A stretch of 64,000 nt of DNA, taken from Schmidtea polychroa (taxonomy: Eukaryota). The DNA lies in assembly GCA_044892525.1 (NCBI GenBank), contig CM097885.1, positions 235,414,001 through 235,478,000 of the forward strand, read 5' to 3'. The translations under genes were made by a program, and so were the position numbers. A model generated the notes under the pieces. The model was not told where the DNA came from and made no database searches. It saw nothing but the letters and a program-made list of their open reading frames with translations. Each line of letters begins with the position of its first letter. The first letter of the stretch is position 1. This document shows, piece by piece, positions 38,290 to 64,000 of this stretch.

Positions 38290-40674
38290 ATTTAGGTGTC
38301 AATGGACAATAACATTACAAAGAATTTTATAAATATTTTATAAATTTACACCACATTTTTCACAACATTTTGTGGCATTTTTTTACAAAATGCACATCGA
38401 GTTTGTTTATTAGCTGGAATCATCCAATTAAGCCCAGTGTTTCTCAAACGGTGTGCCGTGGCACACTAGTGCGCCGTGAGGTTGAGATAGATGTGCCGCG
38501 GAACTTTTCCCCCTAAAAAGTTAGTAATAAAAAAAAATTACAAAAACTATATCAAGCTTTTCAATATGAAAAAGTCGCTTCTGTGGATCAAAATTACAAA
38601 ACATTTCTTAAAGAGAGAAGTACACAAAAAATTTAATTAGTATAGACTAAAAAGTAGCTTTTTATATATCATTGGAAAATAAAAAAATTTGTAAAAATAT
38701 TTGATTTTTAGGCAGGTGTGCCGCGAGCTAGAAAAGTCTGAGAAACACTGATCTAGCCGATCATTTCGAATTTCGACAGGCACCCTGCTAGATAATTCTT
38801 TTGAAGATTTTGGCCTTCCTTAGCCTTTTATGGGATTACCATTTTTTTAAGTACACTTGTACTATATTTCTTCTAAGCTACAAGTAATCTAACTTTATAT
38901 ATTCTGAATTTTTTCTATAAAGTTGCCAAGCATTATGAATTACAGTATCCAAACAAAAATTAAAAGTTTGACTGGTAGTTTCTTTTTTACGGAGGATATC
39001 CATCTTTGAGCCTGTCCTATTGGTTCTACAGGATCACAGGAGCTAACAGTGAGAACTACTTGGTTGTAATTCCAAGCTGTAATAGTAATGCCAGTTTTGG
39101 TGTCAGTATAAAATTCGTATGTCCCTCTTTTTTGTTTTTTTATAAATTTAGTATTTGATATAGGGCATTTTTCTGTTCTATTAGTCATTATTGTTCCCGT
39201 ATACCCTTACCCTAGTGTTTGCAAATGATTAACTAATTTTAACGAAGAAAATAAACTATCTGCATTGATTTTGAAAGGTGCATCTTTTGGGAGATTCGTC
39301 AACAAATTCACAACCACTGAACCTCCAACTCCCGATTCCATATTTTTTCTACGGGTTTGTTTTCCTTGGTATGGATCAAATTGTATGAGATAACTTAAAG
39401 GTTCACATAAACACCACATCTTATAACCGTAGCGGATTGGTTCACCACGTACAAATTGTTTAGCAGTATGTCTTCCAAAATATGGCACTATACTTTCATC
39501 TATGCTCAAATTCTCTAAAAACTCGGAGTATTTCAAATACCGGATATTTAGCAGATCAAAAAGTGGCCGAACTTTGGCAAATTTGTCATCTGGTATCAGA
39601 TTATCATTGTCAGAACAGTGGGCATATTTTTTTATTTGTTCAAACCGATTTCTTCTCATTGCATTAGCAACGACCGGATTATATGTTTCAGTATCGGTTT
39701 CCCATAACATTCTCCATCTGGGTAGATCTAAATACCTGGACAATAATAAAATTGCAATAAACCATTTTAGTTCTTTGACATCTACTTCAAAATTATGATC
39801 TCCTTTAGACCTTGCATATTTAATAAACATATTTTGAAGGAATTCATACACTTCAGCGCAAAAATATAACTCGAAATAACCCATGGAATTAGAAGGTATG
39901 GTTATTTGTGTCTTTGGAGATACAAAAGATTCAAAATTGCACACAAATTCTTTGGATTTTACCCAATGACACTGAATTTTATTCTGTTTCTGCCTCTTTG
40001 GTAACGGTGAATGAGGAACTTCGTCTTCTTCGTCATCTACGTTTTCACCCAAATTAAAAACTCATGTCGACGAATAAACTGTGGCAACAGCTGGAGCTTG
40101 CAACTGGCGCCCGCTCAGATGATTTACATCAACATTTCCATTTTCATCTCCGCTGTCCCCTTCAGTTTCAACACCGTCGTCGGGAGGGGTTATAAACACA
40201 TCTACGCTTTGTATATCCTTCCAAAAACTTTTGTCTTCAACAATTTCTTCCATCTCTGATGTTGTTAAAATTCTGGAGGAAATAAATTCAATGTTGGTAT
40301 AATCCCAGTCTTCCAAATTAGGAACATAGATAATATTGTGAATAAAAAAGTTACATATAGAAAAATTAAAAAAGTACTACACGTAACGAATCTAGACAAT
40401 AAGAGATTATAATAAGTATGAATCAATTTGTAAAAAATGTGTTATCAAGATGTGTAAACTTACTTGTCTGATGACATTTTCTTTGGAACGTAATTGATGC
40501 AAATAAAAAAGCACTGCTTATAACAGGTTTAAACCTGCAAAAATATTACAAGACATGATCTCCACGCTTACTGGCTGTAGACTGTTGCAGTCTAAACTTT
40601 TATTGCGCCGAGAATAGTGGAGAGGGGGTAAAAATACTAAATATTCTAATGTTGGAATACTGGGCAAAAATGGG
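38290..40674 (-). mobile_element. piggyBac (PGBD-like) transposon, inactive; left boundary approximate
   Basis: TTAA-CCCATTTTTGCCCAG terminus at 40674-40678. ORFs 40316-40062, 40052-39207 and 39188-38940 share one frame, separated by single stops (LSIDESIVPYFGRH, PIRYGYKMWCLC). C-terminal NAWQLYR and Cys-rich RCAFCK...CEKCGV remnants lie further left. Confidence 0.9.
38435..38750. mobile_element. hAT MITE (316 bp) nested in the piggyBac 3' end
   Basis: TIR CAGTGTTTCTCA. 8-bp TSD attaagcc / atctagcc. Internal GTGTGCCG(T/C)G repeats. Confidence 0.85.
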
Positions 40675-45400: not shown

Positions 45401-47562
45401 TTTCCCCAATTGATTCGCTGTTGAATGACTGATCTAAAATTAACAATATCAATAAACTTAAAAGTATGATTAATATTATTTTTCATTTAAAAATATTCAG
45501 ATAAACCGACTCATCAAATCCCTTTATGACTGGGGCGGTAAAGGTCATCATATTAATGAAATAATTATATTTCAATCAAAATGAAACTTACAAATTTATG
45601 AAAATAAAATCAAGTTTTCAATTTTCGTCATTTGAATTTGCATCTATAAAAAATATATAATAAAAATAGATAAAATTTTCGGTATAAAATTATAACGAAA
45701 AGTTCTCATTAAAAGAAATTGTGCATCATAATTCAAATCAGACGGCACTTCCAAAATTAATCATAATTTAAATAAAAACTTAAAATAAAACTCAACATAC
45801 TTAGAATTTCAAGATTCATGTTTTAAACGATTTCATTAGACATAGTAAAATCGATAGTTTAAAAGCATAATTTGTATTTCATATTAGTTATTTAAACAAA
45901 ATTTGAAATATTTTAAATATAATTTATGACTTTTTTATTATTACTTTTTTCTAGAAAGATTTTCATGCAAATATGTGATAATTATTTGGTTTAATAGATT
46001 TTTCTTTTAATATTGAAAGCCATATTTTAATCTAATAACCAATTTAAAATGAAGAGATGAAATTTTCTACAACTTAGCTTTATTCATATACATTTTTCTT
46101 ATAATTAATTTTATTGTATATATTTATAATTAACACAATTGTTGGCATTAAGTCATTATGGTCATTTAATTTTAAATATTGTTTAGATTTATAAAATAAA
46201 AGGGAAATATGTTGTCTATCTGTTGCTACGCCTCTCGATCAATTCTTTTTTGGTACAACGGCAATGTCTGAACCATCACCAATTGACTCCACCCATATGA
46301 TGTGGCGTATATGTAATAATCAGCCATAAAAAATCGACGAATTCTACAGGATAACGTCCATTTTGGAAGTTTGTGGCAGCTTGTATAGTCACTGCTTTCT
46401 TTCAATACTTCGAAAATTTCACTTATTACTAATTTCAAATCAATTCACTTTATTTTCCACTGACTTTTTAATCATTAAATATTTCCCCACCGACCTTTAG
46501 ATTACGCCGGGCTTACCAAAATTTGAGTTAGTTTTAAATGATTCTGTGGGATATTTGAGAATCTAACTCCACGTGCTGTTGATCAAAGAACTGGCTCCAC
46601 GATAGTAACTTTTATTGATATTACACTTTACAAACTGAAGTTTTAATATTTTTACTTGATCTATGGGCAGGTAACCATATGGAAGACCATCTAGAGTAAG
46701 TTGACTAAACGAATTTGATATTACTCAAAAGAACTTTTCTTTTCTTTGATGCTTTTGGTTTTGCATTAATTTCAATTACTTCACTTCTTTCACTTTATTT
46801 ATTTTTTGTCTCAGACCAGAAAATTGACCAGCGATCTACCTTTATCGCTCATTTCTATAATTTTATTCACGGATCTTTTCAGTGATTTTTACTGATTGAG
46901 TAAGTCTTTTGCTTTTGCAGAAATGCTATCATTTGATTTCGATGGAGACTTGCCTAATTTCGATTAATATTGGATCTAAAGTCTAACTACTTGAGACAGA
47001 ATGTTTTGTTAAATACTCTAATTGTATAATGCCACAAGATTTCCTTTTACATATAAATACGAGTGTTGGGCTAAAACGTGGAGTTTCGAAAACTGGAGCG
47101 AATAGAAAAGTAATCCTTGAAAAATAAACGAAATAAAATAAAAATATAAAGTACCATCAAATTCTCGCTAATAAATCAAAAAGGAACAATAAAATATCAA
47201 TAAGAGAATAAGAATAAGTAAAACAAACTAAATAAAACCCAATAAACCCCTTGAGATTTAGAAATAAAGCGATTTAGGACCCAGCAGATGAAATAGAATA
47301 AAATAAGTAAAAAAGTGACAACAAATAAAAGAGAAATTTAAGAAATAAATAAAAAATAAAACTATCTTTAAGTCTAATTAAAACAAAAAATTATATTACA
47401 ATAAAGTAGCAATAAATCCACAGGAAAAATAGGAGGAAAATAATAAAAATAAGAAAATAAATAAAATAATAATAGGAAATAAGTTAAGTCATTAAAATCT
47501 AATATATTATAATAAAAAACATAAAAATAATAATAAATAGTAAAAATACAAACAAGTCGTGT

Positions 47563-47590
47563 CCTGATTGGACGAAAAATAATATATAAG
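47563..47590 (+). promoter_or_regulatory. Candidate LTR promoter: inverted CCAAT (ATTGG 47567-47571) and TATATAAG (47583-47590)
   Basis: Motifs are seen directly after an A-rich U3-like tract. Function is inferred. Confidence 0.35.
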
Positions 47591-49996
47591 GAACGGAAAA
47601 TATCTGTAGATTACCACTTTTAAAAAATTTTTCTACAGGTAAACTTCGGTTCGTTATATACTACCACTTTTAAAAAATTTTTCTACAGACTTGACAGATT
47701 TCGGAACCTTTAATTATCCTACAGCGAACTAGTTCAGAGATTACCAAACCAAACCGAGGAAGAAATATATAGAGGCCAAACTACAAATCCATTCGGGAAA
47801 AATTTTAAATTCAACCGATTTAACTTCAGTTTTCGAAACTCAAGGTATGCCTCGACAGTTGTTTTATTTATGGTTATTAGTTTAATTTAGTTAATCATTA
47901 TAAATATAATAAAACAATTTCTTATAATAAATTTATTTAAATGAAAAGTTGCCTTTCTTCATGGTACCGACGACTGTACCATCTGAGAGCTCCCAGTATG
48001 ATGTGGACGAGTTGGAATTGCACTGCAGTAGAGGACACCACCGTGGAAAGGTTGGTATGCATAAGAAATCACGAACATGCTGAAAAGAGAATGTGATATT
48101 TGTAGAGAGTGATATTTGTCATATTAGAGATCCACCAAGGAGACGATGAGGTTTCGATCATGTAGGAGGAGCAACATCATACTCGGAGATCCAAATGATA
48201 TGGTCGCCGGGTAAATTTTATTTATGCATTTTCTATCATTCAGTTTGATTATTATATTGTTGATTTGATTGAATGGAAAAGAGTTGATTGGTCCCTCATG
48301 ACGGTGCAAGGAGGTGGCAGCAATGAATGCCTTCTTGGGTGTGTCGTGAGGGGTGAAGAAACTCAGTAGGTGGAACATCCAGTTAATAAATGACCGTTCC
48401 TTCATCAAGCGCGATCGTCTGTAGAGCGTACCATCGGTTCATTTAGTTAAATCGAGATTTCCAGTAGATGTAGAGATGATTTGAATTCCGAATGCAGACA
48501 ATTCAGAGCGAGATAGGCAGTGACGTTCGTACAGATTCGATGATAATCCACATAGATAGGAGGAAAATTCTTTTCGTGATATTCAGCCGGTCAATCGACG
48601 TAGTTAGGAAAGAACGGTGTCGACCATAGATTGCAAGTAAATCCAACGATTTTTCGGTGACGCTCTGCGTTTGCAAGGTTCTGTCTGATTTGTGCCGTCA
48701 TGATGTTAGCGGCTACATCCATTGTCGATGTACTCTTACGATTTGATTGTCGTCCTTGAGTCACCAATGCCAGTGATAAAGAATCTCTCGCTGACAGGGA
48801 AGTAAACATCTTGTAGTGAAATTATCAAAATTCTTACTTCGAGCCCGCAGACAGTAGTTGTCAACGATAACGAAATCAGTTGATTTGCATTAGCCTGCGT
48901 AGAGTTAGTCGACAGGAGATATCTGATAACGTCCTGGAGAAGGAGATAACATGTTAACTTTTCTGGGAAAATGTCAAATGAATAAGCTGATAGTCATTGA
49001 TCTGAATTAATATCGTAAAAGGAAATTAGATGATATTGTTGAGCTTACCCAATAATCTATGAAGTTGTCGCCCACTCAGATTGATTAATCTGATTTTTCG
49101 ATTCATCTACGGCTGCTTATTTGAGGAATCTATTACGCAACCGCTAATATTCCGACTTGAGCATGCACATACACACGCACCACAGTCAAATATGCATAGG
49201 GCAGTGTAAAAGGAAATCAACGATTTTGGTGATGTAATAGCGGCATGATGGTATAAATTTCTCTAGAATAGCGAGATAATAGGATGAAGTAAGGGGATGG
49301 ATTTCCCCTACACAACTCGATATACAATAATTTATCATAACAGCATAAACCATCATTCGCGGAGATAGCCAACATACAGTTACAGATACCACCAGGAGTA
49401 ATGACACACCTACACAGTCAATCATAATGCATAATCACAAGTAAACGTTTTCCATGACGACGATTTTCGACGCGTTATTGGAATTAATTAGATGTAGATT
49501 AGAGCTGAATTTTCAACTGATTACACGATCAATTCCATAATTTTGAACGAGATAAAAACATAAATAATCTATTCCGTCGCCGTGAATTATTTCTCTGTAA
49601 TGTTAGGCAGGCCTACCTCGACGAATTGCCATAATGATATCGGCAAAAATTCTTAATTAAAATATACTAATGGGAACAAGGTTGAAGGGGATAAAGTAAA
49701 AGACGGGTTTTACCTGGGAATGGCCCATCCGAAATTAAACTCAAAGGGCGAGGTTTGTGTAGAAAGAATTTTTGGTATACGAATCCCCGTTTCCTTTTCT
49801 TAAATTACACGAATCAGGTGAAGAGATTTGAATGTTTGCAACTGAATGACTGCGTATAGAGATGGATGAAGAAGTGTGTGGGTCATCGTTGGGTGGTATG
49901 TTTGATCAAACTCCAAAACCATGCCCAAAAATTTGATTTTTCTTCACACTGATAGAGGTTTCTTCGAGTAAATATAAACAATGATTGATTTTCTAG

Positions 49997-50758
49997 ATGG
50001 CTACATCGTCCAACAACGCCAAAGAACTTCGCCCGTGTTTTTCTTGTGCGGACAAGAACGCGGATATCGCCCAACTCCACTTATATATCGGGGCTCTCAA
50101 AAAGAGAATTGATCTCTATGAAGGAACGTGGTTCTCCCCGCCACAAATGAAAGAGGAACGCAAGAAAATTCTCCGATTAGAGCATTGCAGGGACAGCCTG
50201 CTAGAGGAAAGCCGTTGTCAGCGGCTCACCATCAAAGCACAGTCAGAAGCCCTCCATAAGGTATATACGGAGGCAGAATTGGCTAAGCGGGTGCGAGAAT
50301 TCCCCGTTCTGGATGGGACGAATGTCTTTCCTCGTCACCACCCGTCTCCTACATCTTCCGGCTCGCACTGCCAGGGGCACGGCTCACAACTGCCGCCCAT
50401 TCCACCCCCGGTGTTGTCATGTCACCAGCCAAAGATAGGTGGACCTACTGATCCCATCGTAGCTCCAATCTTGGTAGCACCAATCGGTACCACGAACACC
50501 GAAAAACCCCCGACTACCCGCAAACGGAAACGGCCAACTCGAGCCGAGAAGAACCAAAAACGCCGAGATGCGATGACAGCACTCGAGACGTCCTTATCGG
50601 CGGCGAAATCAAAAATCCAAGAGATAACGTCCTCCCATTCAATCCCCTCAAAGGAAGTCTTCCGCATTGTTCCAGCTGAGGGCATCAAATACATTGTAGA
50701 TAGCCGATTACCGGTCGACATAGATGAGATACTGGCCGATGGGGATAACTTTGTTTAA
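49997..50758 (+). CDS. Orphan accessory protein, 253 aa (CxxC, coiled coil, Pro-rich linker, basic NLS-like RKRKR)
   Basis: Long intact GC-richer ORF, immediately preceded by the acceptor ttttctag|ATG and followed by an AATAAA signal near 50889. Confidence 0.75.
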   Translation: MATSSNNAKELRPCFSCADKNADIAQLHLYIGALKKRIDLYEGTWFSPPQMKEERKKILRLEHCRDSLLEESRCQRLTIKAQSEALHKVYTEAELAKRVREFPVLDGTNVFPRHHPSPTSSGSHCQGHGSQLPPIPPPVLSCHQPKIGGPTDPIVAPILVAPIGTTNTEKPPTTRKRKRPTRAEKNQKRRDAMTALETSLSAAKSKIQEITSSHSIPSKEVFRIVPAEGIKYIVDSRLPVDIDEILADGDNFV

Positions 50759-51758
50759 TGTGATGTAAAATTGAGCTTGATTTCCTCTTCATTGAGTTGT
50801 AAATTATCTCGTGAATGTTGCTAATGTTATATCTTTTTGACTGTTGTTGATCTGTTAGTAGTAATGATATTTTTATCGTTTCAGTGTCAATAAAATTTTC
50901 TGTTTGATTTTAGTTTTGTCGAGCTTTCATATATTTGTTTGTGCAATTAGAGTAGATGAGATAATGCTGCGGAATGAAGATAATTAAGGTTGAAGGTTGT
51001 TCCTTTGGACCAGGATCAGACCGAGTGACACGCATGTATATGGGTAAGTCCTTCTAAGGCACCGTGGGACCCGAACTGAGAAAGGGTTAGGAGTAGTCCT
51101 AAGGCAGGGGCTCACCTGCTAACCTTTTCCGACCCGTGTGAGCAGCACCAACATGGAACATCACCATGGGCTCATATGTGGGAATATGCAATCAATCATT
51201 TGGAGTATGTGTAGAAAATGTATAACGGAGCCATGATGCTTGATAGGTGTGATGGAAAGGCATGTATAATTTTTTTTTTCTTCTCCACATACGCCAACAT
51301 GATTTTTGGGGGCTCAGCCGGGATCTATATTGATTTGTTTGATTGTCTATTTTTGTGTTATGATGTGTTAGATTAACAATTTAATTAATTATGATAAAAA
51401 CGGAATCGGGGCTGAAATGAATTATAGTGCAATAAAATGATACGAACTGTCTGAGTTTGAAATAGAGCATGTGGTGAATGAAACGAACCTAAATGAGTTG
51501 GAATGAATGTGATGAAGTATGATGAGAAAAGAAAACGGGAATTGGTTATTGTGGTTAATTTTAACTGGTTAAAATAAAAGGGGGGGCGGAGAAAGTAAGT
51601 GATTAAAGCGAAAAGATGAAAGGGGAACTTCAAAGATCGAATAAAATACAAAAGTTAAAACACTAACGCACAGAAGTCAACGAATACTAAATACAAATAT
51701 AATAATATTATTTTTAATACCAGCAGGAACAAAATAATAACAACACATTCATTTAGAT

Positions 51759-52238
51759 ATGTCAGAAGCTAGACAACATCTACAACAGCTAAGCCGGTTC
51801 GTCGAAATAGAAAATGATTCAATAAAAACATTAAGAGAAAAACTGAAACAAATAGAACTGCTAGAACAACAAAGCCACAACGCACCGCTGATATCCAAAC
51901 AAAACTTTCTAACCGACAGATTAGGATCAACAAATACCGATACCGACTTGTCTATTCATTACCAATGGTTTCAGCAACGTCTCGACGACCCCGCTCTGAA
52001 CATCGAATATGTGAGGATACGCGAACGAGTCAAAACTCTGTCTCAGCGGATACGAACATCAATAGTAGAGAAAGCAGCGGCCTTGAGAACTTGTAACATT
52101 TGCAAGATGCGACCTGTCAAAATTCTGATTCTACCTTGTGGGCACCTTAGCCATTGTGACGAATGCGCCGCCGGTTTAATCCGTTGTTCTATGTGCACAT
52201 GTGTAATAAAAGAGAAGCACACCATCTACTTCAGTTAG
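51759..52238 (+). CDS. Coiled-coil plus C-terminal C3HC4 RING (IAP/MDM2-type) putative E3 ligase, 159 aa, no BIR
   Basis: CNIC-x11-PCGH-x3-CDEC-x6-CSMC followed by the hydrophobic tail IYFS-stop, the layout of IAP-type RINGs. Confidence 0.9.
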   Translation: MSEARQHLQQLSRFVEIENDSIKTLREKLKQIELLEQQSHNAPLISKQNFLTDRLGSTNTDTDLSIHYQWFQQRLDDPALNIEYVRIRERVKTLSQRIRTSIVEKAAALRTCNICKMRPVKILILPCGHLSHCDECAAGLIRCSMCTCVIKEKHTIYFS

Positions 52239-52821
52239 GTATGCGATCGTCGCTCGGTGAAGGAAACTGGATGATTAACAATTAGATTAAACATTTTTGA
52301 TATTTTTGTTCTGAATTAATTCGGTAATGTTTTATAATGATAGCATATATTATCTGTAATGTGGAGTAAATAACTAATAAATCCTTTCTGTGTATTCATT
52401 TCATTATACGAAGTTATAAATCGATTTGTGTTGTTATAATTTTCACCATGAAGAAAGGGCATTTTAAAAATTTAAATTGATTATTTAAAGTGGAACTAGT
52501 CCCATCATAGTGCTAAAGGGGGAATAAACCGAGCCACCTTCGGGAGGTACGATATTGGAACCATTTGGGAAGGGACAACCGATCACCCCGAGTAAGAGAT
52601 GTAAGGCGAGGTACCATCGCGAATATTGAAAAGTTTCTGCGGTATGGCTGATCACCATACCAATGTAGAAATGGATCAATGCGATCGTTTTGCGTTTTAA
52701 GCAAGGGGGGAAAGGGGAAACCTTCCAAAGCGGTACAGATTAAGTCGACAAATAAAAGTAAAAATAGGAAGATGACAGTATAGAATAAAGACAGAAAAGG
52801 AACGGAAGCATGCAGAGTTTA

Positions 52822-53265
52822 GAGACATTAAGGCCGAGCTGTTGAAAAGTCCAGCCGGTCAGGGAAATTGAAACTGAGCTGTGAAAAGTCCAGCCAGTCG
52901 GAGATATTAAGGCCGAGCTGTTGAAAAGTCCAGCCGGTCAGGAAAAATTAAAACTGAGCTGTGAAAAGCCCAGCCAGTCGGAGATATTAAGGCCGAGCTG
53001 TTGAAAAGTCCAGCCGGTCAGGAAAAATTAAAACTGAGCTGTGAAAAGTCCAGCCAGTCGGAGATATTAAGGCCGAGCTGTTGAAAAGTCCAGCCGGTCA
53101 GGAAAAATTAAAACTGAGCTGTGAAAAGTCCAGCCAGTTCGGAGATGAAGAAGATTGAGCTGTTGAATAGTGCCAGCCAGTCGTAAGATCGAGTTGTTGA
53201 ATAGTCCAACCGGTCAGGAGAAGAAGATTGAGCTGTTGAAAAGTGCCAGCCAGTCGTAAAGGCCT
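52822..53265 (+). repeat. Tandem array: four 80-bp units (two sub-repeats each) plus three diverged sub-repeats
   Basis: GAGATATTAAGGCC recurs at 52901, 52981 and 53061. The core GAGCTGT(T)GAA(A/T)AGT(G)CCAGCC(A/G)GTC occurs 11 times. Confidence 0.95.
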
Positions 53266-53923
53266 AAAGTAATAGTGAGATAGCATTCAAGCTACAAGTT
53301 GATAACATTTAAATTACTAGTGAGATGGAATATTAAAGCTAGCTAGAAGCAAAGTGAGTTTGAAATATGGTATTTGAATTTAGAAAGGATTAAACGAGCT
53401 CGTGGGAGGTAATAATGAAATTTTTTTTTCAGTGAGAAAGAGAAACTGAAAAGGAAAATGAATTAAAGAGATAATGAAAATAAAGAATAAGTGATGAGTA
53501 AAAGAGGAAGGTGATTAATTAATTAAAAGGGATCCCAGATAAGTAGACAAAGTTCTACAGAATTTTTTTTGGTTTAAACCGGTTAAACGAATTTTGTTTT
53601 GGTTACAGAGTAGAACCAAATAAGGGGAAACAGAGATGAAAGATTAAGTAAAATAGCGGAACCGCGTAAAAGGATTAAGAAAATATGGGAGGTAATAAGC
53701 AGTAACTGACAACGACCTATCGATATTATAAATGCTAACTATAGATAATTTATACGACTATATAGATAATTGTTACTACCCCAAATAGATAATTTAAAAT
53801 CGACGAAAAATATGGGTTGATGGGTAATTATATTCCGCGAAGAAGTGTATGAGGGGAAATGAAGAGAAGTATAACAGAGGCCCTAAAACGGTGTCTGTGC
53901 TTGAATGTGGCAAAAAGGAATGA

Positions 53924-56900
53924 TTGATTCGTGTAAGCAAAGGCAACACGATATCATATTTTCATTGTAGACATCAATCCAACCAAGTCAATTCAGAACC
54001 AGCTCAAGAGGAATCCAGAGAATATACAAACAACCCAGGAAAAGCAATTCAGAACCCGCACAAAGGAAGACAATATCAAAACCGAACTCGACCAATTCAG
54101 CAGACGCTAACCGTAGAAAATCCACGTGAAAAGACAGAAAAGAGTAAAAGGAAAATCACGGATAAACCCAACCTTAGATCTTCAAGTAAGCCAGGAGACG
54201 TATTATTTTCAGGAGACGAATTAGATCAACTCAAAAGAGGACGATCATTTAGGCAGCAGAGAGGAATATCACAAGGAGCAAAAAGACCCCACAAAACACC
54301 GATATACGATCAAGAAAACCCCACAGCCGGACATACGCCCAGTCGATCTAGAAGTAGAGAAAGTCTATCCGATATAACAAACAACCTAACCGGGTCAACA
54401 GAAGAATTATCCGTCCATAATTTAGCTACATCATTAGAAAATTTAAAAGAAATTTTAGCATTTCAAGAACCAATCAAGATGAATGTAGCAAAAACCGACG
54501 AATATAAAGAAAAATTTAGAGGCGAACCGTTCAACGGGAATGCGAACAAGTTGGCAACGTTCATAACCAATTTTGAAGTCTATATCGATGTGTGTGGATG
54601 GACATCCGAAGCAATTAGTAAACGAATGCCTCTGTTTTTGTGCGATAGCGCACTCGAAGTGTATCTGGAAGCAAAAGAAAGAAATACGAAATTAGACAAT
54701 TGGGAAAACATCAAAACATTTTTGAGAAAAACATTCGGAGCCAGCAAACCGATAAATCAAGCGTTAGGTGAACTGGCAAGTAGAAAACAAAGAGCAAACG
54801 AGTCAATTACGTTATACGCAAGTGAATTGCGAAGATTGGCAAAGAAGGCCATGAACGGAAACTTGCCGGAGGAAAACTTAATTGGGTACTTCATAGAAGG
54901 ACTACGCCGAGAAGAGGTAAGGGCCTCGGTGGGATGTCAAATGTGTAAAACACTAGAGGAAGCTATAGATTGGGCCACAAGATGCGAACTACACCTCCCG
55001 GCACAAATGAATGTCATGCAAGAGGAAGGAAGAATCGCAACAGCAGCGGTGAAAACGGAAAATGGAGATAACAATAATCATGAACCAAAGATGAATCAGT
55101 TTATACCAGGTGCGCATCAAATTTTCAAACCACCACAAGGACGATCAAACGGGAATAACAGTGAACGCAACAACTCGAACAATGGGAACAACTTTAATAA
55201 TCGACGAAATATGAACGATAACAAACAATGCCGAACATGCGGTAAACCAGGACATTGGGATAGAGATTGTTACCGAAACGCAAATTGCAATAGGTGTGGA
55301 CGACGAGGACACACGGAAAATATATGCCAATCGAGAGGATGTTTTAACTGCGGGCAACCAGGTCATATCTCAAGAGACTGTCGAGAAAGGAGCCAACATC
55401 AACGACCACCACAGCGAAATAATAACTATGCACCAAATCCGCAACGACAAAGTAATCCTAGTGAGGGAAAGCAAATGAATGTGATGCAAGAAATTTCACA
55501 AATGAAGCAGATGATGCAACAAATGATGAGACCGAGACAAGAGCAAGTACCACAACAAACCCAGAATATACGCATGATGAGAAGCACCGAGAATCTTAAC
55601 AATTATGAAGTGCAACAACATGCACAAGAATGGCAAAGACTACAAGCTGAAGAAGAAAGGATAAAAAGAGAGCGAATTCAGCAGCGACAAGAACAACCAC
55701 TACGAATAAATATGATGAGGATGGTAAAGGAGATAAAGGAGCAATATTGTTACAATTACGGTAAAAATCCAAGAGTTGTACCTATGAGCGAACCAGAGAA
55801 ACCGAAAGAAACAATTCCAGCAGCAAAAAAGGAAAATTCAACAACACCGCTAAAAGGAAATCAGAGAATTCAGAAAATATTTTGGAAAAAGATAAAAGAT
55901 AAAATCGAAAGAGAAAATGAGCAAACAAAAACAGAAGCAGAAGCAGAAAATAACGAAAATGGAAAACAGATTAATCATCTAAAGCATAATATGATACGAG
56001 AATTAGACTCAGAGGAGCTAACGATACTCGAGAACAAAAAGTTAAAGAAAGTACCAAGAATGAAAAATTTACGAATTAATATGATGAGGACAACAAAGAA
56101 GGTGTTGTCAACAGATGACGATGAGGATTATGTGAGTAGCCTTGGTGGAGAAATGTTACAGTTAAATGAAAATATCGACCAACTAAGAGAAAAGATCGGA
56201 GCAGATGAGGATGAAAGAGAAAGCGACGTGACAAGCGAAAGCGAAGACGAGAATATCGAAATGAAATTGAGAAAAGAAAGAGAAGAAGCGATAAAACAAG
56301 TAAAGGAAATACTTCCAGTGGTAGTAAGAAACCAGGAGTTCATCGACCTTATACCATATAAACGCTTCTTACAAAAGATAATGAAACTAGAAAGAAACGA
56401 AAAAGATCTAATACCAAACGAGGAAAAAGCGATAATAAAGAAGTATATGGAAAAAATGAAACAAGCGGAGACAACACGCTATGTAATAAAAATCGGAACG
56501 AGTAAAGGACTCGAGAGAATATGGATAAAAAATGCAGTCACAGACGAGCTTTTTGATTGGATAAGAGAACATTTGGGCAGCTCGAGAAAGAAAGAGTATT
56601 TATATCAATATCAAGGAGAACAAATTAAGCCAGACATGCACCTAATAGATGCATTGATCTGGCCAGGAGAAACTCAAATATTGAAATTGTATAAAGAGAA
56701 GCAACCAGCAAATATTCACGAATGGGCTAAAGACGCCAAGGCCGAGTATGATTTTAACATCAAGCTGAAGCTGGAACAAATAAAACAATGCACCTTGCGA
56801 CGAAATCTAGATAAATTAATCAAACAAATTCAAGAACAAGTCGAAGATAACTGGGATTTACTCATAGCAAGACGAACTCCAGACATGCATGAACTAATGA

Positions 56901-59900
56901 GCCGATTACGAGATACAGAATTGCTCAGGATGAGCGATTGGAGAACCATAAATTTGATCCACAAATATGGAAGGTTGAAAGAAACGCAACCGCAGAAATT
57001 AGAAATAACCATATGGTTACCAAACGAGGAGAAACGACGAATAAAGATGAGTAATCAGAGTACGGTGGATGACTTAGTAACCAAGATAAACCAAGAGATA
57101 ACGGAAAAAGTACGAAGCGAGAGTAGCGACGGGATGATAGATGACGTAGTCATGATGTACGATAAAATAATATTACGGGCCGAAGACGACACCTCGCTAA
57201 GCGAAATGGGAATGTGGGATAATCATCAAATCATCAGAATATTGCCCATGGACGAATTCCGAACAAGAGATATAACATACCAGAAAGAAATACGAGACAG
57301 GATGAAAACGCTATATCAAAAATCAGTAGAGATAATTGAAATTCATCAACAGTGGCTAAAAGAAAAAGAGCTTCAAGGAAAAATAAAGAAACTAAGTGTT
57401 AGATCCTGCAGACGAACCCCATGGGAAAGGACGTGGAATGCGGAAAACAAAGAATGGGAAATCAGGAAAGGGATTTTCGTGGAAACAGACATTGGTGAGA
57501 TAGAAAGCGAATCAGAAGAAGAGGAAGATGAACCTCCAAAATACGAAGAGGACGAAATAGAATCGACATCGGACGACGAAAGCGAAACGGATGTTACATC
57601 AGAAAGTGAAACGGAAACCAGACATATTCATGCGATGAGAAAGAAAGAACGCGAATATGCCGATATGGACAGCGAAGAAGCGATGGAAGCTCGAGAACGA
57701 GAAGAGAAGGAAAGATATAAACAATTAGGTGATATCTTAGCAACGGGAACAAAAAATCAAAAACGTCAAGTAATAGCATTGGCTAACATCATCCTAAAGA
57801 CATCAGAGAATATCCACAATCTAAGAGAAATGGCGAAAGCGATTGAGGAATACAGACAATATAACGAATGGTACCCAGAACAGCTAGAACAAATTATTAG
57901 GAAATGGAGAAACCAAGAATGGGCACAAGATACCCAGGAAAGGTATCGTATCCGAGTCAAGTATCCCGACAAAAGCATTGAGGATACAGAAGTACATCCA
58001 ACAACAAAGATCAGAGAGTTAAAAAAGAAATTAGCATACGAAACTCCATTTCACCTACAACTATTCGGAAAATCGTTGGATGATAATGCAGATGTCGGAA
58101 TAACACCCATGAGATTGGGGGAGATCAATGTATTGACAATGGCAGAAACATTGGGAAAACCGATTAAAAGGAAGAGCAAATCCAGTAAACCTACGAAAGG
58201 TAGCTTGAGTACACCAAGCCCTAACAAAGTGGCAAGTAAAACGAATGAAACCGAGGAAATCGAGGAAATTATATTGGAAGACAGCGATGAAGGAGCTGGA
58301 GAAAGATCACCAATTCTGGTAAGATGGCCGACAGGAGCCGAAATATGGACAACAAGCCAACCGTCAACTAGCTATCAGCAGCCAAATAAGCTGAGTATCG
58401 AGGAGATTATCGATAATACAACAGAAACCGAAACCGACGAACAATTCCAACGACAGAAAGGACCAACGAAAGCAACACCAGAAGGTCAAACGGACAAAAT
58501 AATAGACGAATGGAACGAATGGCTGAGAAACAACGATAGCTCATTGCCAAGAACGGATAACGAGAGAAACCCGAATTATGAAAATACAAGGGAAGCCGGA
58601 ACAATGATGGAAAAACGGGCAAAAGGGAGACCCAAGAAGCAAGGAGAAAAACCGGAATTTAAAACTAGAGAACAACTGAAACAAGAACAAGGACAAGTCA
58701 GATTAGAGAAACTGGATAAAATAGTGTGGGATCTAAAAGAGGCCCAGCCAACTATCGAAAGAGGCGAAAAATGGATACGAGAGCTAGTAAAAGATATGCT
58801 AATAATAACGAACCCACAATTGCGACGGTTATGGCAACGAAAAGTAGCAAGCGTAGACGCCAGACAACTATGGAATACAATATCCGGAATAATTCCGAAA
58901 TTAATCAAAGAGAAGACAAAAACCACTAAAACCGATTGGGAAGAGACAAGAAGAGTAATTGAACAATTAACTTTAAACGCAAACGACGACGAACATCATT
59001 TAGTAGTATTAACGTATCTAATGTACAATTTGATGGGATTAGCAGCGAGGAAAATACCTAACAAACAATTCGCAAATCATGTAGAAATGACCGTTACAAT
59101 CATCGAAAATACAATCGAACCACATATTATCCGCGCCGGTGGGTGGAAAAGACTCATACAAGCGCCACGAAAAAACGAGCAAGAGAGATCAATGCAAATT
59201 CGGTTGAAGAAATTACTAAACAAGCTAGAATGGGAATTGCCATTGAAAGACCCAGCCAGCAGAAAAGCGTCGATTAATTCACTAATGATGACCATGATGA
59301 TATGGATGCTCTGCACCAGTGGAGCCGCGGGATTTACTATTTACGACTGTGACAATTCGATAATAGGAGAAAGATACTCCCTGAGAGATATAGAGGAATG
59401 TAGACAGGCGTCTCCGAATAAATTAGATATAGTAAAAAAGAAAGTCTCCTATCACGTATACCAAGAATCAGATTTCATTAGAACGCAAGCTAGAGAATGC
59501 GTAGTATCGAAGAAAGTGTTGGCATATTACTGTGGACAATACTCATATTCAACCCTCATATTACCTGGATTAGATAAAGAAATAGTACCTATACAACGGG
59601 AAGACTGTAAAGAGCTTTTTAGAACCGGAGCGATGAGAATCAGGGATGGAGTAACAATACACGGACAAAGCGGAATGATCAAGACGGAAAGTATCTATGT
59701 AGCCGGACGAGTAAAATCAACGGATGGATCATGTAACGGAGGCACATATACGATCAGAGGAGAGGTGATATCAGGAGTAGTAGTAATTGAGTCCTACACA
59801 GTGGAGTTGAAGGAATACGAAGCACAATTCGACGCAAACAACTATCAAATGAAAACCAACCCAGCATGCAGAGCTACGGAAAACGTGTGTAGAACGGGGA

Positions 59901-62900
59901 TTTCGACTATAATATATGAAGCTAACACCCAAAAATGCCGACTCCAATTGTTAAAAAGTGCTCTATTCAATGAAGTAAAAGGAGAAATTTACGAAAACGA
60001 GGATGACGATGAAGAGAATGGAAACGTAAGGATGCGAAATGGGAAACCAGTTCCGCCATCCCCCAAAGAAAAGAGACTCACAACCCAAAAAACACCAACG
60101 GCATTAATTACCGATGATCCAGACATCGGCATGAGATTCATTAGAGAAAAAGAGACCACCAAATGTGACAGTATAGTATACTGGACGAACTACGCAGGTA
60201 TCTACATGTCAAGGCAAGTAATAGACCGAGCAGTGGGAAAGGTAGCAACGGAGGACGTAAAATTGTACCTGTATGCCAATAATAAGATGGACTTCTTGTT
60301 CCACCGAGGACAAACGACAATGCAAAAAGTGTATTACGATCTTATACAAAATGACTGTTCATTGAATAAAGAGATACTAAAAACAAAATTAGCCATCGCA
60401 ATAACACACCCAGATAACACAATGCCATCACTCCCGTTACCGGATGGACATTTTGGTAGAATGGTGGGAGAGGTAATGTATACATATGCATGTACCAAGA
60501 CATTTGCGCGACTGCCAAGAAAGCCCACAATTCCACCAGGGAAATGCGCAAACGAGTTGGAAATTAGTTACAAAGGGCGAAACAGATTCGTTCAACCCGT
60601 CACTCGAATCATGAACCCAATTGGATTTTATCCGAACACCTTTAACTGTTCAAATGCATACGGACCGTTATATGAAAAACCCGATGGGAAATGGATAATG
60701 TTACCAGTAAAAACCGAAGTACAAGAGCCTAAAAAGTTTGGACTAATAGAACTCGCAACAGAACAAGATTTCAAACCAATTGATGTGTCAAAAGCAGGTA
60801 TGTACTCACCAGAGGATTTAGAAACGGCACGATTAAACGTATTATTCCCAGCAAGACGGGAATCCATTCTATCGAATATGGTTACCATAACTGGGGGAAC
60901 GAATTTCCAGTCAGGCCCCAATTACGAACTATTATTGTCACCTGATCATTTTCAACAAGCCACGTCAAACATGATGAAAGCAATGTGGGGAAGATTTCTA
61001 GTGTTCGGTCAAATGATGGCAGGAATATTGGGAATCATTCTTATTATCCAGATAGTTAGAGTAATATTGACTCAAATGTTAGCGTGTTTTGATATCTATA
61101 AGAGAGAAAAGAAGGTAAATTGGAAATTGATAGTAGGCTTTCTACCATTTTTGGCAAAAACAATGGTGTTGCACGGTCATTCTAAAGACATACATAGAAT
61201 AAAACGATTGATCAAAATACTGACAAAAATAAAAGGAACTGACGAGGAAGTCGGTAGACGATTTCGGAAAACAATGTATGATGAAGCAACAAGGACGCAA
61301 CTGAAAAAGAACAAACCAAAATTCTTAGACAGATTTAGGAATCGATCAAACAGCAGCGATAGTGATGATGACGACAACGGGAATGACAAATACCCATATC
61401 CAAGTAGAAACCCGAATGAAAAGCCAATAGAAACAGCACCATATTGGGAGAAAGAAAAAACAAATACCTGGATAGCCAACGGAAGTTATATACCACCAGA
61501 TATCGTTGGACAACAAACAGCTTTGACCATGACACAAAATATGTATCCACAGTTACCAAGTCAACCAGGGATGAACTATATGCCGACCCGAAGAACGAAA
61601 AGTGTAGACCAAGCGGACGACGTAAGAACGATAGCAGTGATGAGTTCACCAGGAGGTGCGGCAGTAACAGTCATGATCCAAATCAACGGGAAAGAGACAA
61701 GCGCAATGATAGATACCGGAGCAAACGTATCAGCAATAGCAATAAACCAAATACCCAGTAAATGTTGGAAAGATATCGAACAAACAACTATCCATATTAT
61801 TGCATGCAGTAAAGAAACCGTAGACGTAGTAGGAAGATGGTGGACTACGTTACGATATCAGGATAACGAAATTGAAACGTATCTAGCGGTGATACCCAAA
61901 CTGAGTGAACCATGTATAATCGGAACGGATTTAATGCCGGAATTGTTTAAGGAAGTAGTAATCGATTTAACAACAATGTGTCTAAAAGACAAAATGGGTA
62001 GAATATGCAAGATGAACGCAATAATTAGATGTCCGGAGAAAATAATTGTACCCGCAAAATCACAGATGATATGTCAAATAAAAGTGGATGCAGGAATGGA
62101 AGGAGAAGTCATTTTTGAGCCAAGCAAATCATTCGAAAAACGACGAGAATTACCATTAGCAAGAGAAATAATAACAATAAATGAAGACGGGGAAATACCA
62201 ATTAACATCACAAATTTCGAGGAAGAAGACAAGATCATATATGAAAATGAAAGATTGGGTAGATTGACACCCATGATAGACATCGAATTACCAAAAATCA
62301 CCAACGAAACAACGAAAGCGGACGAATTATGGATAATTGATAGCACCTTGCTAACGGAAAAAGAAAAGGAGAGACTTCAACAATTATTGATAGAATATAA
62401 AGATATATTCGCAATTTCGGATTTAGATTTGGGAGCATGCGATGTTACACTACACGCAATACCATTAATAGACGAAACTCCAATCGCACTACGTCCATAC
62501 AAACTAGCAGAGAAGCAAAAAGAGATAGCCGAAGCAGAAGTACAAAAAATGCTAGATGCACAAGTGATCGAACCAAGTTGTTCGCCATGGCAATTTCCAG
62601 TAGTCATGGTGAAGAAAAAAGACGGTACTCAGAGATTCTGTATCGATTATCGGAAATTAAATGCAGTAACAAAAAGAGACACATACCCTTTACCAGACAT
62701 CAATGAGATGTTACTTATGTTACAGGGGGCCGCATATTTTACATCTTTAGATCTGAAAAGTGGATATTGGCAGATCAAAGTCAAGGAGGAAGACAAAGAG
62801 AAAACAGCATTCACATTGGGCCGAGATCTATACCAATTCAGGAAAATGCCGTTCGGACTGACCAATGCCCCAGCATCATTCCAGAGATGTATGAATTTTG

Positions 62901-64000
62901 TCACACACGGGATCAAGCAGTGTATGGTATATATTGATGATTTATTAATATATTCAGCAACTTTCGAACAACATTTGGAAGATATCAGAAACGTGTTCGT
63001 TCGATTACGACAATGGAAACTGAAACTTAAACCATCCAAATGTGATTGGGCAAAAGAAAAGGTTACGTTCTTAGGACACATAGTGTCAGCAAAAGGCAAA
63101 GAACCAGATCCAAGAAACATAGAAAAAATAAAAACATGTCCAGCACCAAAAACTGTCACCCAAGTTCAAGAATTTCTCGGATTATGCGGATATTATCGAA
63201 AATTCATCAAAAACTATGCAGGTATTGCGAAACCAATACAGGAATTAGTGAAAAAGGATATTTCATTTATTTGGGGTGCAGAACAACAAAAAGCGTTTGA
63301 GACATTGCGAGATAAATTAATTGAAGCCCCAATACTAGTACATCCTGATTTCAAGAAACCGTTCCTATTAGCAACAGATGCAAGTGGATATGCAGCCGGA
63401 GCAATATTAGGACAACTGGATGAAGAAGGAAAAGAAAGAGTGATTGGATACTACAGTAGAACGTTTAAAAAGCACGAGAAAAACTATTCCGTAACCGAGA
63501 GAGAAGCGTTAGCAATCATACAAGCAATTAAACATTTTCGATATTTGTTATGGGGACACGAAATATGTATCACCACGGATCATCAACCATTAGTATGGCT
63601 TGGTCAACACAAAGAAGCTTCAAGTAGATTGATGCGATGGGCAATGCAGTTACAAGAATATTCACCGTTCATAAAATTCAAAGCGGGAAGAGCGAATGCC
63701 AATGCGGATTGTATGTCCAGATTTATCTTTCCAGATTTAGTAGATCACGAAATGCAACGAATATGTCTGATGGTAGCAGAAGATTTAGATTTTTGCCAAT
63801 TACGGAAAGACCAACAAGAGGATACAGAGTTGAAGCAAATCATTGAATATGTGAAAACAGGGAAAGCAGAGGTATATGAGAAAGATCAAAAATTGAAGGA
63901 GCATATGGATAAACATCGACATCGATATATTATCGAGAAAGATTGGTTATTGATAATGGATGGCGAGAAAAGACTGATGTGCATTCCCGAGAATAGACGT
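53924..64000 (+). CDS. Single Gag-accessory-Env-Pol polyprotein, at least 3359 codons, 3' partial; first in-frame ATG at 54479
   Basis: Frame +2 is open from the TGA at 53921 to the window end. I translated most of it by hand and found no stop, and the track lists no closed frame +2 ORF here. Capsid, CCHC, DTG, YIDD and TDAS motifs all fall in this frame. Confidence 0.93.
   Translation, partial: [3359 protein letters not shown]
54479..55020 (+). other. Gag capsid domain
   Basis: [24 protein letters not shown]...[12 protein letters not shown]...[20 protein letters not shown]...YFIEGLR. Confidence 0.9.
55229..55381 (+). other. Nucleocapsid with three CCHC zinc knuckles
   Basis: [28 protein letters not shown] and [14 protein letters not shown]. 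Confidence 0.97.
56474..56700 (+). other. Ubiquitin/SUMO-like domain 1 (putative)
   Basis: [18 protein letters not shown]...[12 protein letters not shown]...[21 protein letters not shown], a beta-grasp-like pattern. Confidence 0.5.
56996..57250 (+). other. Ubiquitin-like domain 2 (putative)
   Basis: [32 protein letters not shown]...[29 protein letters not shown]. Confidence 0.65.
57941..58145 (+). other. Ubiquitin-like domain 3 (putative)
   Basis: [30 protein letters not shown]...[15 protein letters not shown]. Confidence 0.65.
58690..59170 (+). other. Bcl-2-like helical domain (putative)
   Basis: VIEQL...LVVLTYL followed by [15 protein letters not shown], a BH2-like GGW at BH1-BH2 spacing. 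Confidence 0.5.
59273..61620 (+). other. Internal signal peptide, chuvirus-like envelope glycoprotein ectodomain, TM anchor (about 60995-61090) and cytoplasmic tail
   Basis: [24 protein letters not shown]...YSLRDIEEC...YCGQYSYS...GSCNGG...LYANNKMDF...DCSLNKEIL...[10 protein letters not shown]...FVQPVTRI...AGMYSPEDL...[22 protein letters not shown], with 14 ectodomain Cys. Confidence 0.85.
61631..62023 (+). other. Aspartic protease
   Basis: [17 protein letters not shown] (DTG 61712-61720) and CIIGTDLM. Confidence 0.95.
62380..63200 (+). other. Reverse transcriptase
   Basis: [51 protein letters not shown] and YIDD (62930-62941). Confidence 0.98.
63355..63730 (+). other. RNase H (Ty3 type), followed by the start of integrase
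   Basis: [18 protein letters not shown]...VIGYYSR...[12 protein letters not shown]...ITTDHQPL...NANADCMSR. The window ends at [10 protein letters not shown], just before the expected integrase HHCC. Confidence 0.95.

Follow-up and report, generated by a model that had tools for sequence, protein, structure and literature searches.

The element and its polyprotein

The 64,000-nt window analysed here, from Schmidtea polychroa (GenBank assembly GCA_044892525.1, contig CM097885.1, positions 235,414,001 to 235,478,000, forward strand), carries the upstream part of a Burro-type Ty3/gypsy retroelement. The complete element measures 30,585 bp and extends from position 47064 of the window to L012:5648, where L011 and L012 are stretches past the window's end. 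Its polyprotein is encoded by a single stop-free frame, which begins at 53924, runs beyond the end of the window at 64000 and closes at L011:6359 (4,811 codons, stop to stop). In one frame, this specifies Gag, a Bcl-2-like region, a signal peptide, a glycoprotein (G) of the gB/chuvirus type, protease (PR), reverse transcriptase (RT), RNase H (RH), integrase (IN) and ankyrin repeats. Our subject is the path this chain takes across the membrane of the endoplasmic reticulum (ER), and what it means for Pol. The features are as follows (LTR, long terminal repeat):

47064..51299 (+): 5′ LTR, 4,236 bp, TG...CA; the 3′ LTR at L012:1413-5648 is identical
54479..64000, on to L011:6359 (+): polyprotein from the first Met, 4,626 aa; this Met is residue 186 of the stop-to-stop frame
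54629..55381 (+): Gag capsid (PF03732) and three CCHC knuckles, by Pfam
58994..59146 (+): Bcl-2-like stretch directly before signal peptide 1, weak here (E 0.098)
59264..59332 (+): internal signal peptide 1, by hydrophobicity; predicted cut after ...AAG at 59332
59333..60943 (+): G ectodomain, class III gB/chuvirus type, predicted lumenal; 14 Cys; PF24664, E 2.6e-71
60944..61057 (+): membrane-proximal helix and single predicted transmembrane helix (core 60995-61057); Arg at 61058 ends the segment
61121..61171 (+): patch 2, an uncharged run of ten residues flanked by Lys on both sides and containing an invariant Pro; placed by prediction in the cytosolic face of the membrane rather than across it
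61172..61630 (+): polar G tail and linker, predicted cytosolic; MYPQL at 61541-61555
61631..61642 (+): IAVM, candidate protease site, about 26 residues ahead of the catalytic Asp
61670..61945 (+): aspartic protease, by Pfam
62609..63661 (+): reverse transcriptase and RNase H, by Pfam
L011:5358-5405 (+): signal-like segment 2, after IN and the ankyrins, by hydrophobicity
L011:5406-6212 (+): second domain predicted to be lumenal (about 245 aa, Cys-containing) and last transmembrane helix; a basic tail follows

Pfam finds Retrotrans_gag, zf-CCHC, Monjiviricetes_fusion (E 2.6e-71), RVP, RVT_1 and RNase H in this order within the window, and IN and ankyrins past its end. The Bcl-2-like stretch, a region named (as BCL2) for Burro elements in PMC6431247, is matched better in the relative P0009 (E 0.00096). 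In the protease, the Asp of the motif IDTGA is at 61712. Two to three aspartic-protease-like domains per polyprotein occur in P0003, P0004, P0006, P0007, P0010 and P0016, one of them after IN in P0003 and P0004.

The original prediction held that no frameshift separates Gag from Pol, and the single 4,811-codon frame bears this out. A scan of the frame found neither a 2A motif nor a well-structured slippery site; the eight in-frame slippery heptamers have weak downstream folds (best minimum free energy −10.5 over 60 nt, calculated with no control). The ratio of 1:1:1 for Gag, G and Pol that went with this claim is merely what the frame implies.

The fused G-Pol frame is no accident of one copy. 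All 40 scored matches to 60700-61900 are 98-100% identical, and the frame is open over at least 4,700 codons in 43 of 116 copies (scored with the C-terminal protein). Gag and PR are spaced by 7.09-7.12 kb, with G kept, in 34 of the 35 copies matched by both probes; a crude first look at candidate counts (Gag 322, G 564, PR 580) gave no excess of copies lacking G. All parts of the polyprotein are under purifying selection. Over eight diverged, mutually related copies, the ratio of nonsynonymous to synonymous polymorphism (pN/pS) was 0.04 for signal 1, 0.07 for the ectodomain, 0.0 for the anchor, 0.011 for patch 2 and 0.06 for the tail, and 0.013 for RT-RH, 0.34 for signal 2, 0.17 for the second ectodomain and 0.11 for the last helix. 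The lowest silent-site variation of the frame lies upstream of the first Met, at 54149-54330 (0.07-0.16 vs a mean of 0.35), possibly a packaging or translation signal.

Predicted membrane segments

Searches with the G region gave fused relatives and many stand-alone G proteins. Fourteen polyproteins cover the start of G (this copy, three genomic stretches of other families and ten database proteins); in all of them, a signal-like stretch, judged by eye, lies ahead of the first ectodomain cysteine, and the ectodomain contains exactly 14 cysteines. A profile of 118 G sequences, compared with solved structures, hit herpesvirus gB in 34 of 37 matches (best E 0.003). These data predict G to be a class III fusogen in the lumen, held by disulfide bonds and of the gB type by ectodomain homology and conserved cysteines, with fold and fusion as predicted properties. 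The genome holds at least two more G-carrying element families (L013-L048), in which G is about 36-39% identical and the same layout recurs (signal peptide, G, transmembrane helix, PR).

The landmarks of the original prediction, FLVFGQ at 60995, WKLIVGFLPFLAKTMVL (patch 2) at 61121 and IAVM at 61631, are all present at these positions in the translated frame. The most hydrophobic 19-mer among the 3,359 in-window residues of the frame is the G anchor (61013; Kyte-Doolittle mean, KD19, 2.53), followed by patch 2 (61115, 1.41) and the signal-like stretch (59285, 1.40), while the Hessa centre scale separates the three clearly (anchor −0.1, signal 1 1.7, patch 2 6.9). A C-terminal G query gave 147 protein matches, 136 of which passed the score and coverage filters; from these, we scored 16 fused sequences and 97 complete stand-alone G proteins and excluded 23 fragments or sequences of other lengths. 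KD19 is at least 1.6 for the anchor in 16/16 fused polyproteins and 87/97 stand-alone proteins, and for patch 2 in 1/16 and 10/97, respectively. A Lys or Arg closes the anchor in every fused sequence. Patch 2 of the fused set has a longest uncharged run of 9-11 residues (15/16), Lys or Arg on either side (14/16) and the proline (16/16); in stand-alone G proteins, an Asp takes the position of this proline in 36/97. A basic stretch follows patch 2 (net +6 in 25 residues). Herpesvirus gB has one transmembrane domain and then membrane-binding cytoplasmic helices (PMC12607583).

We see good support here for one predicted stop-transfer after G, with patch 2 not crossing and the tail and Pol in the cytosol. 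By hydrophobicity, a single transmembrane pass, and no even number, is predicted after the ectodomain, and the earlier proviso that patch 2 must not cross agrees with its length, its invariant proline and the single fused sequence in which it is hydrophobic enough. Two further observations concern this region. The conserved Gly turn before patch 2 is replaced by a charged run (61100-61117) in this element and in P0023, adding basic residues on the predicted cytosolic side; in many relatives, patch 2 contains one or two Cys that could be S-acylated.

The G tail carries MYPQL, which is of the YPXL late-domain type and presumably also fits a YxxPhi sorting signal. Both kinds of motif act in the cytosol; MYPQL would be an independent marker of a cytosolic tail. 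YPXL is an ALIX-binding late domain (PMC8952333). Tails that are otherwise dissimilar have the YP motif in common: [LIVM]YP is present in 11/16 tails of the fused set (shuffle mean 1.2, maximum 6) and in 57/96 of the stand-alone set (3.9, maximum 11), and YPxL in 6/16 (shuffle 0.5) and 27/96 (1.2), respectively. The motif was first noticed in the fused set, and the stand-alone set is an independent check. Between G and PR, the linker varies from about 50 to 310 residues and, by eye, cannot be aligned between lineages. Words resembling IAVM stand at domain borders and directly before both signals, eight times in the window's frame against 1.3 in shuffled sequences, which weakly suggests that they may be protease sites.

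A signal-like segment follows IN in all seven sequences that reach that far, and six of the seven have a further hydrophobic segment later; from the G anchor to signal 2, none of the seven has anything comparably hydrophobic. Signal 2 of P0153 leads straight into an Ig domain (E 1.5e-5), and the corresponding domain of the genome's second family looks FN3-like, a weak match (Atlas 0.91, low recognition). There is moderate support for a second predicted surface protein, exported and with its own anchor, at the end of the polyprotein. A signal exporting such a domain must be entered from the cytosol, which would again place Pol there. P0112 has a different arrangement: a protein of 1,000 aa in which Ig domains and two hydrophobic segments precede a member of this G family, so that an Ig membrane protein stands ahead of G rather than after IN.

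The predicted topology and its rivals

We consider it likely, from these sequence comparisons, that the chain crosses the ER membrane four times, with Pol as a cytosolic loop between the tail of the fusion protein and a probable second signal peptide. The frame and the order of its domains are read directly from the DNA. Signal peptide 1 would, with good reason, start translocation, and G would fold in the lumen with seven disulfides; the helix at 60995-61057 would then stop transfer, and patch 2 would rest in the leaflet facing the cytosol, much as the membrane-binding tail helices of herpes gB do. Past IN and the ankyrins, signal peptide 2 may well export the small second surface protein with its own anchor. 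Signal peptidase would thereby produce three membrane-bound pieces: the Gag side with signal 1, G-tail-Pol with signal 2, and the second surface protein. These might collect at one membrane site, where the YPxL of the tail could recruit ALIX/ESCRT or sorting adaptors, and the protease of the element might then release capsid, nucleocapsid, PR, RT and IN. G trimers might activate this protease, as the original prediction proposed. Pol would reach the particle via the membrane that it shares with Gag, without a Gag-Pol fusion. By the textbook account, retroviruses and LTR elements bring Pol into the particle fused to Gag and make Env as a separate product.

The core of the original prediction (signal in, one stop-transfer out, Pol cytosolic on the G tail) has four comparative lines in its favour and stays a prediction. 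Its wording that Pol is tethered to the G tail "rather than to Gag" needs amending: the tether at the G tail is predicted, too, by our analysis, but the Gag side would keep the cut signal peptide 1 as a C-terminal anchor, by analogy with the core protein of hepatitis C virus (HCV). As signal peptide 1 would stay on the Gag side after signal peptidase, the Gag precursor and Pol would share a membrane. Pol would also be held at its far end, by the segment found after IN in 7/7 sequences. With its Bcl-2-like region right before signal 1, the Gag side presumably resembles a tail-anchored Bcl-2 protein.

Several points weigh against the four crossings. The topology calls rest on simple Kyte-Doolittle and Hessa scales rather than on a trained predictor, and independence cannot be claimed for the 16 fused sequences, which include this copy and the close pair P0003/P0004. 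Signal 1 is weak in this copy (KD19 1.40), falls below 1.35 in P0002 and P0006, and lies 1,600 residues into the chain. Signal 2 of this copy is the weakest of its set (Hessa 3.6), contains a Glu and has the highest pN/pS (0.34); its cut-off of 3.7 was picked so as to include this copy. The Ig match of P0153 is below the Pfam cut-off (25.8 vs 30 bits), the second ectodomain of this copy has no match in Pfam or Atlas, and those of different lineages do not align mutually, P0003 with P0004 excepted. Patch-2 regions with an uncharged run of at least 19 residues occur in 27/97 stand-alone G proteins and in P0016. Glycosylation sequons are uninformative, with 24 in 1,518 tail residues vs 25 in 7,543 ectodomain residues (one tail being shortened by the search pattern). 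The pattern for the protease sites was derived from the very hits that it finds, and IAVM matches it only when relaxed; in the genome's second family, a looser version showed no clear pattern at the borders. One genomic copy, finally, lacks G altogether (L049; G000:C1:66431001-66441000): an in-frame deletion of 5,217 nt, its junction corresponding to window 55939/61157, has removed the Bcl-2-like region, signal, G, anchor and most of patch 2, and Gag is joined in frame to the tail and PR.

What this tether would do for the element can be read differently. It is possible, if doubtful, that it is brief and unimportant, PR cutting itself off the G tail early and Pol being packaged by binding genomic RNA or Gag, as in foamy viruses, whose Pol enters the particle in that way. 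The candidate site IAVM directly before PR, the similar words directly before both signal peptides and the variable linker would all fit this. The in-frame fusion of G to PR is, however, kept in 16/16 fused sequences, down to about 27% identity, and the second predicted Pol anchor in 7/7 fits an anchoring role, without proving it. That patch 2 is instead a second transmembrane helix, with the tail and Pol in the ER lumen, is highly improbable. Patch 2 does contain the second most hydrophobic 15-mer of the window's frame, and the long uncharged runs just mentioned speak for it; against this stand its ten uncharged residues between two lysines, the central Pro, the basic stretch next to it and the cytosol-type tyrosine motif behind. 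RT and IN work in the cytosol and nucleus; both are strongly selected here, and this frame is their only visible source.

Two other accounts concern how Gag and Pol are supplied. Were signal 1 often missed, a cytosolic chain of Gag, unfolded G and Pol could give cores, with a covalent link of Gag to Pol restored, and the translocated part could give G; the signal's modest strength and its depth in the chain argue for such a dual topology. In most relatives, signal 1 is stronger (KD19 1.6-2.4), and even if it were missed, the translocon would still meet the G anchor and signal 2 and would probably insert them the wrong way round; we find a dual topology distinctly unlikely. Spliced or truncated RNA could give a conventional Gag-Pol or an excess of Gag, with the tethered Pol as a side product or the ratio far from 1:1:1. 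Particle assembly usually needs excess Gag, and Cer1, a gypsy element with a single polyprotein, makes a spliced product (PMC10309623). L049, with Gag joined in frame to the tail and PR, would fit such a route, but as a spliced product it is rejected: its junction has a 3-nt microhomology and no GT..AG ends, its RT is frameshifted, and the junction occurs in 1 of 40 scored places. It looks like a one-off deletion; L051 carries a different deletion, and L050 is collinear. Across signal 1, G and the anchor, synonymous variation (0.21-0.59) does not fall clearly below its mean of 0.35; in the tail it drops slightly (0.18-0.19), as it does at several other places. With these findings and with only weak folds at the eight heptamers and no 2A motif found, we regard this route as unlikely. 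Contigs from three sets guessed to be RNA and one unlabelled run were also compared with 49000-64000: among 15 of the 50 joints, none skips G or shows GT..AG ends, these pieces being short, of uncertain RNA origin and with no bearing on splicing. Single contigs end in poly-A or poly-T at 51614, 56266 and 61644, and these ends were discounted; around the first two, the sequence is rich in A, which makes internal priming likely.

The element among known systems

The pol order PR-RT-RH-IN and the direct LTRs (TG...CA) with a target-site duplication, CGAG, make this a Ty3/gypsy element. The single mismatch of the 4,239-bp LTR alignment falls just outside the LTR end; with identical LTRs and the CGAG duplication, the insertion is therefore very recent. 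Burro (GYPSM1) comprises giant gypsy-like LTR retrotransposons of planarians, with env in frame between gag and pol (PMC6431247), and the element is of this type by size, LTR length, domain order and cargo; its gene order is thus already known. It exceeds 30 kb and has LTRs of several kb (4,236 bp); its single polyprotein of about 4,800 codons (4,811 here; near 4,800-5,100 aa in Burro) has Gag with three CCHC knuckles (2-3 in Burro); env lies in frame between the BCL2-like region, itself a weak match (E 0.098), and PR-RT-RH-IN; and the cargo comprises ankyrins, MATH/TRAF and RING, MATH and RING here being in separate ORFs. In contrast to Burro, MATH/TRAF is a separate downstream ORF. The Ubi2/SUMO-like and dUTPase-like domains of Burro had no Pfam match here at E 0.05-0.1; the Burro paper used HHpred.

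Besides the polyprotein, the element contains a TRAF-like protein (RING, zf-TRAF, MATH) at L011:6926-8365, a charged, coiled-coil-looking ORF of 347 codons without a Pfam match at L011:8580-9623, a 253-codon ORF without a Pfam match within the LTR (49997-50758), a RING-finger ORF directly past the LTR (51741-52238) and a tandem repeat in the leader (52820-53260; unit about 80 nt), the unit number of which differs between copies. A piggyBac-like transposase fragment (DDE_Tnp_1_7) at 39207-40061 (−) has no relation to the retroelement finding.

GAG-ENV-POL errantiviruses with an HSV/gB-type env, reported from Platyhelminthes, Nematoda and Bryozoa (PMC13524379), have the same gene order and the same type of fusogen. 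Six Schmidtea elements of 14.5-18 kb are listed there; by eye, the genome's second family agrees letter for letter with Smed_errantivirus_2 over a stretch of 30 residues, and the present element looks closest to Smed_errantivirus_5. That account borders the ectodomain by a signal peptide and a transmembrane helix, or by two transmembrane helices; the terms "polyprotein", "fused", "frameshift" and "splic-" are absent from its main text, and the consequence for Pol is apparently undiscussed. The account of Burro in the parts of PMC6431247 covered has nothing on signal peptides, membrane topology, a tail motif or a second membrane protein, and the words transmembrane and signal peptide are absent from PMC7642597. 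In-frame Gag-Pol is known from other gypsy elements, DGLT-A (PMC6101501) and Cer1 (PMC10309623). In its ectodomain, membrane-proximal region, single transmembrane domain and membrane-binding tail helices, the predicted G resembles herpesvirus gB (PMC12607583). Stand-alone G proteins of the chuvirus/Anakin type (PF24664) share the anchor, the position of patch 2 and the YP motif; their tail ends after a median of 61 residues, whereas here it continues into Pol.

How Pol is packaged after the signal peptidase cut in gag-env-pol elements is not addressed in the parts of PMC6431247 and PMC13524379 covered, and membrane co-anchoring would be a testable answer. Nothing on the four-crossing topology, the tail motif or the second surface protein turned up in the literature searched, which covered neither Sacco 2022 nor the figures of PMC13524379. 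Two features thus not found described are the conserved YPxL-type motif in the tails of the G family and the second predicted surface protein, which could supply the receptor binding that a lone gB-type fusogen lacks; entry by GAG-ENV-POL elements is called unknown in PMC13524379. Planarian tissue expresses BURRO1 once piwi is knocked down (PMC8532177), and native material for a test therefore exists.

The original prediction likened the arrangement to alphavirus or flavivirus polyproteins. By hydrophobicity, internal signals and stop-transfer anchors are predicted to alternate in one frame in this element and its relatives. As in Flaviviridae, the signal peptide that opens the envelope protein would form the end of the capsid precursor, one membrane-threaded chain would be processed by the host's signal peptidase together with a second protease, and the enzymes lie downstream of the envelope proteins in the same frame. 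HCV core keeps the envelope signal peptide as its C-terminal anchor (PMC5402940). There is no homology between the two systems: the flaviviral fusogens are class II and the present one class III, and their replicase is not packaged, whereas here RT and IN must be. We put forward, tentatively and as a possibility, a reverse-transcribing virus lineage that works on flavivirus logic, its single chain giving an anchored Gag, a fusogen tail bearing a budding signal and all of Pol, and an exchangeable Ig/FN3 attachment protein, in which assembly of the envelope, instead of a Gag-Pol fusion, would package Pol and time its activation.

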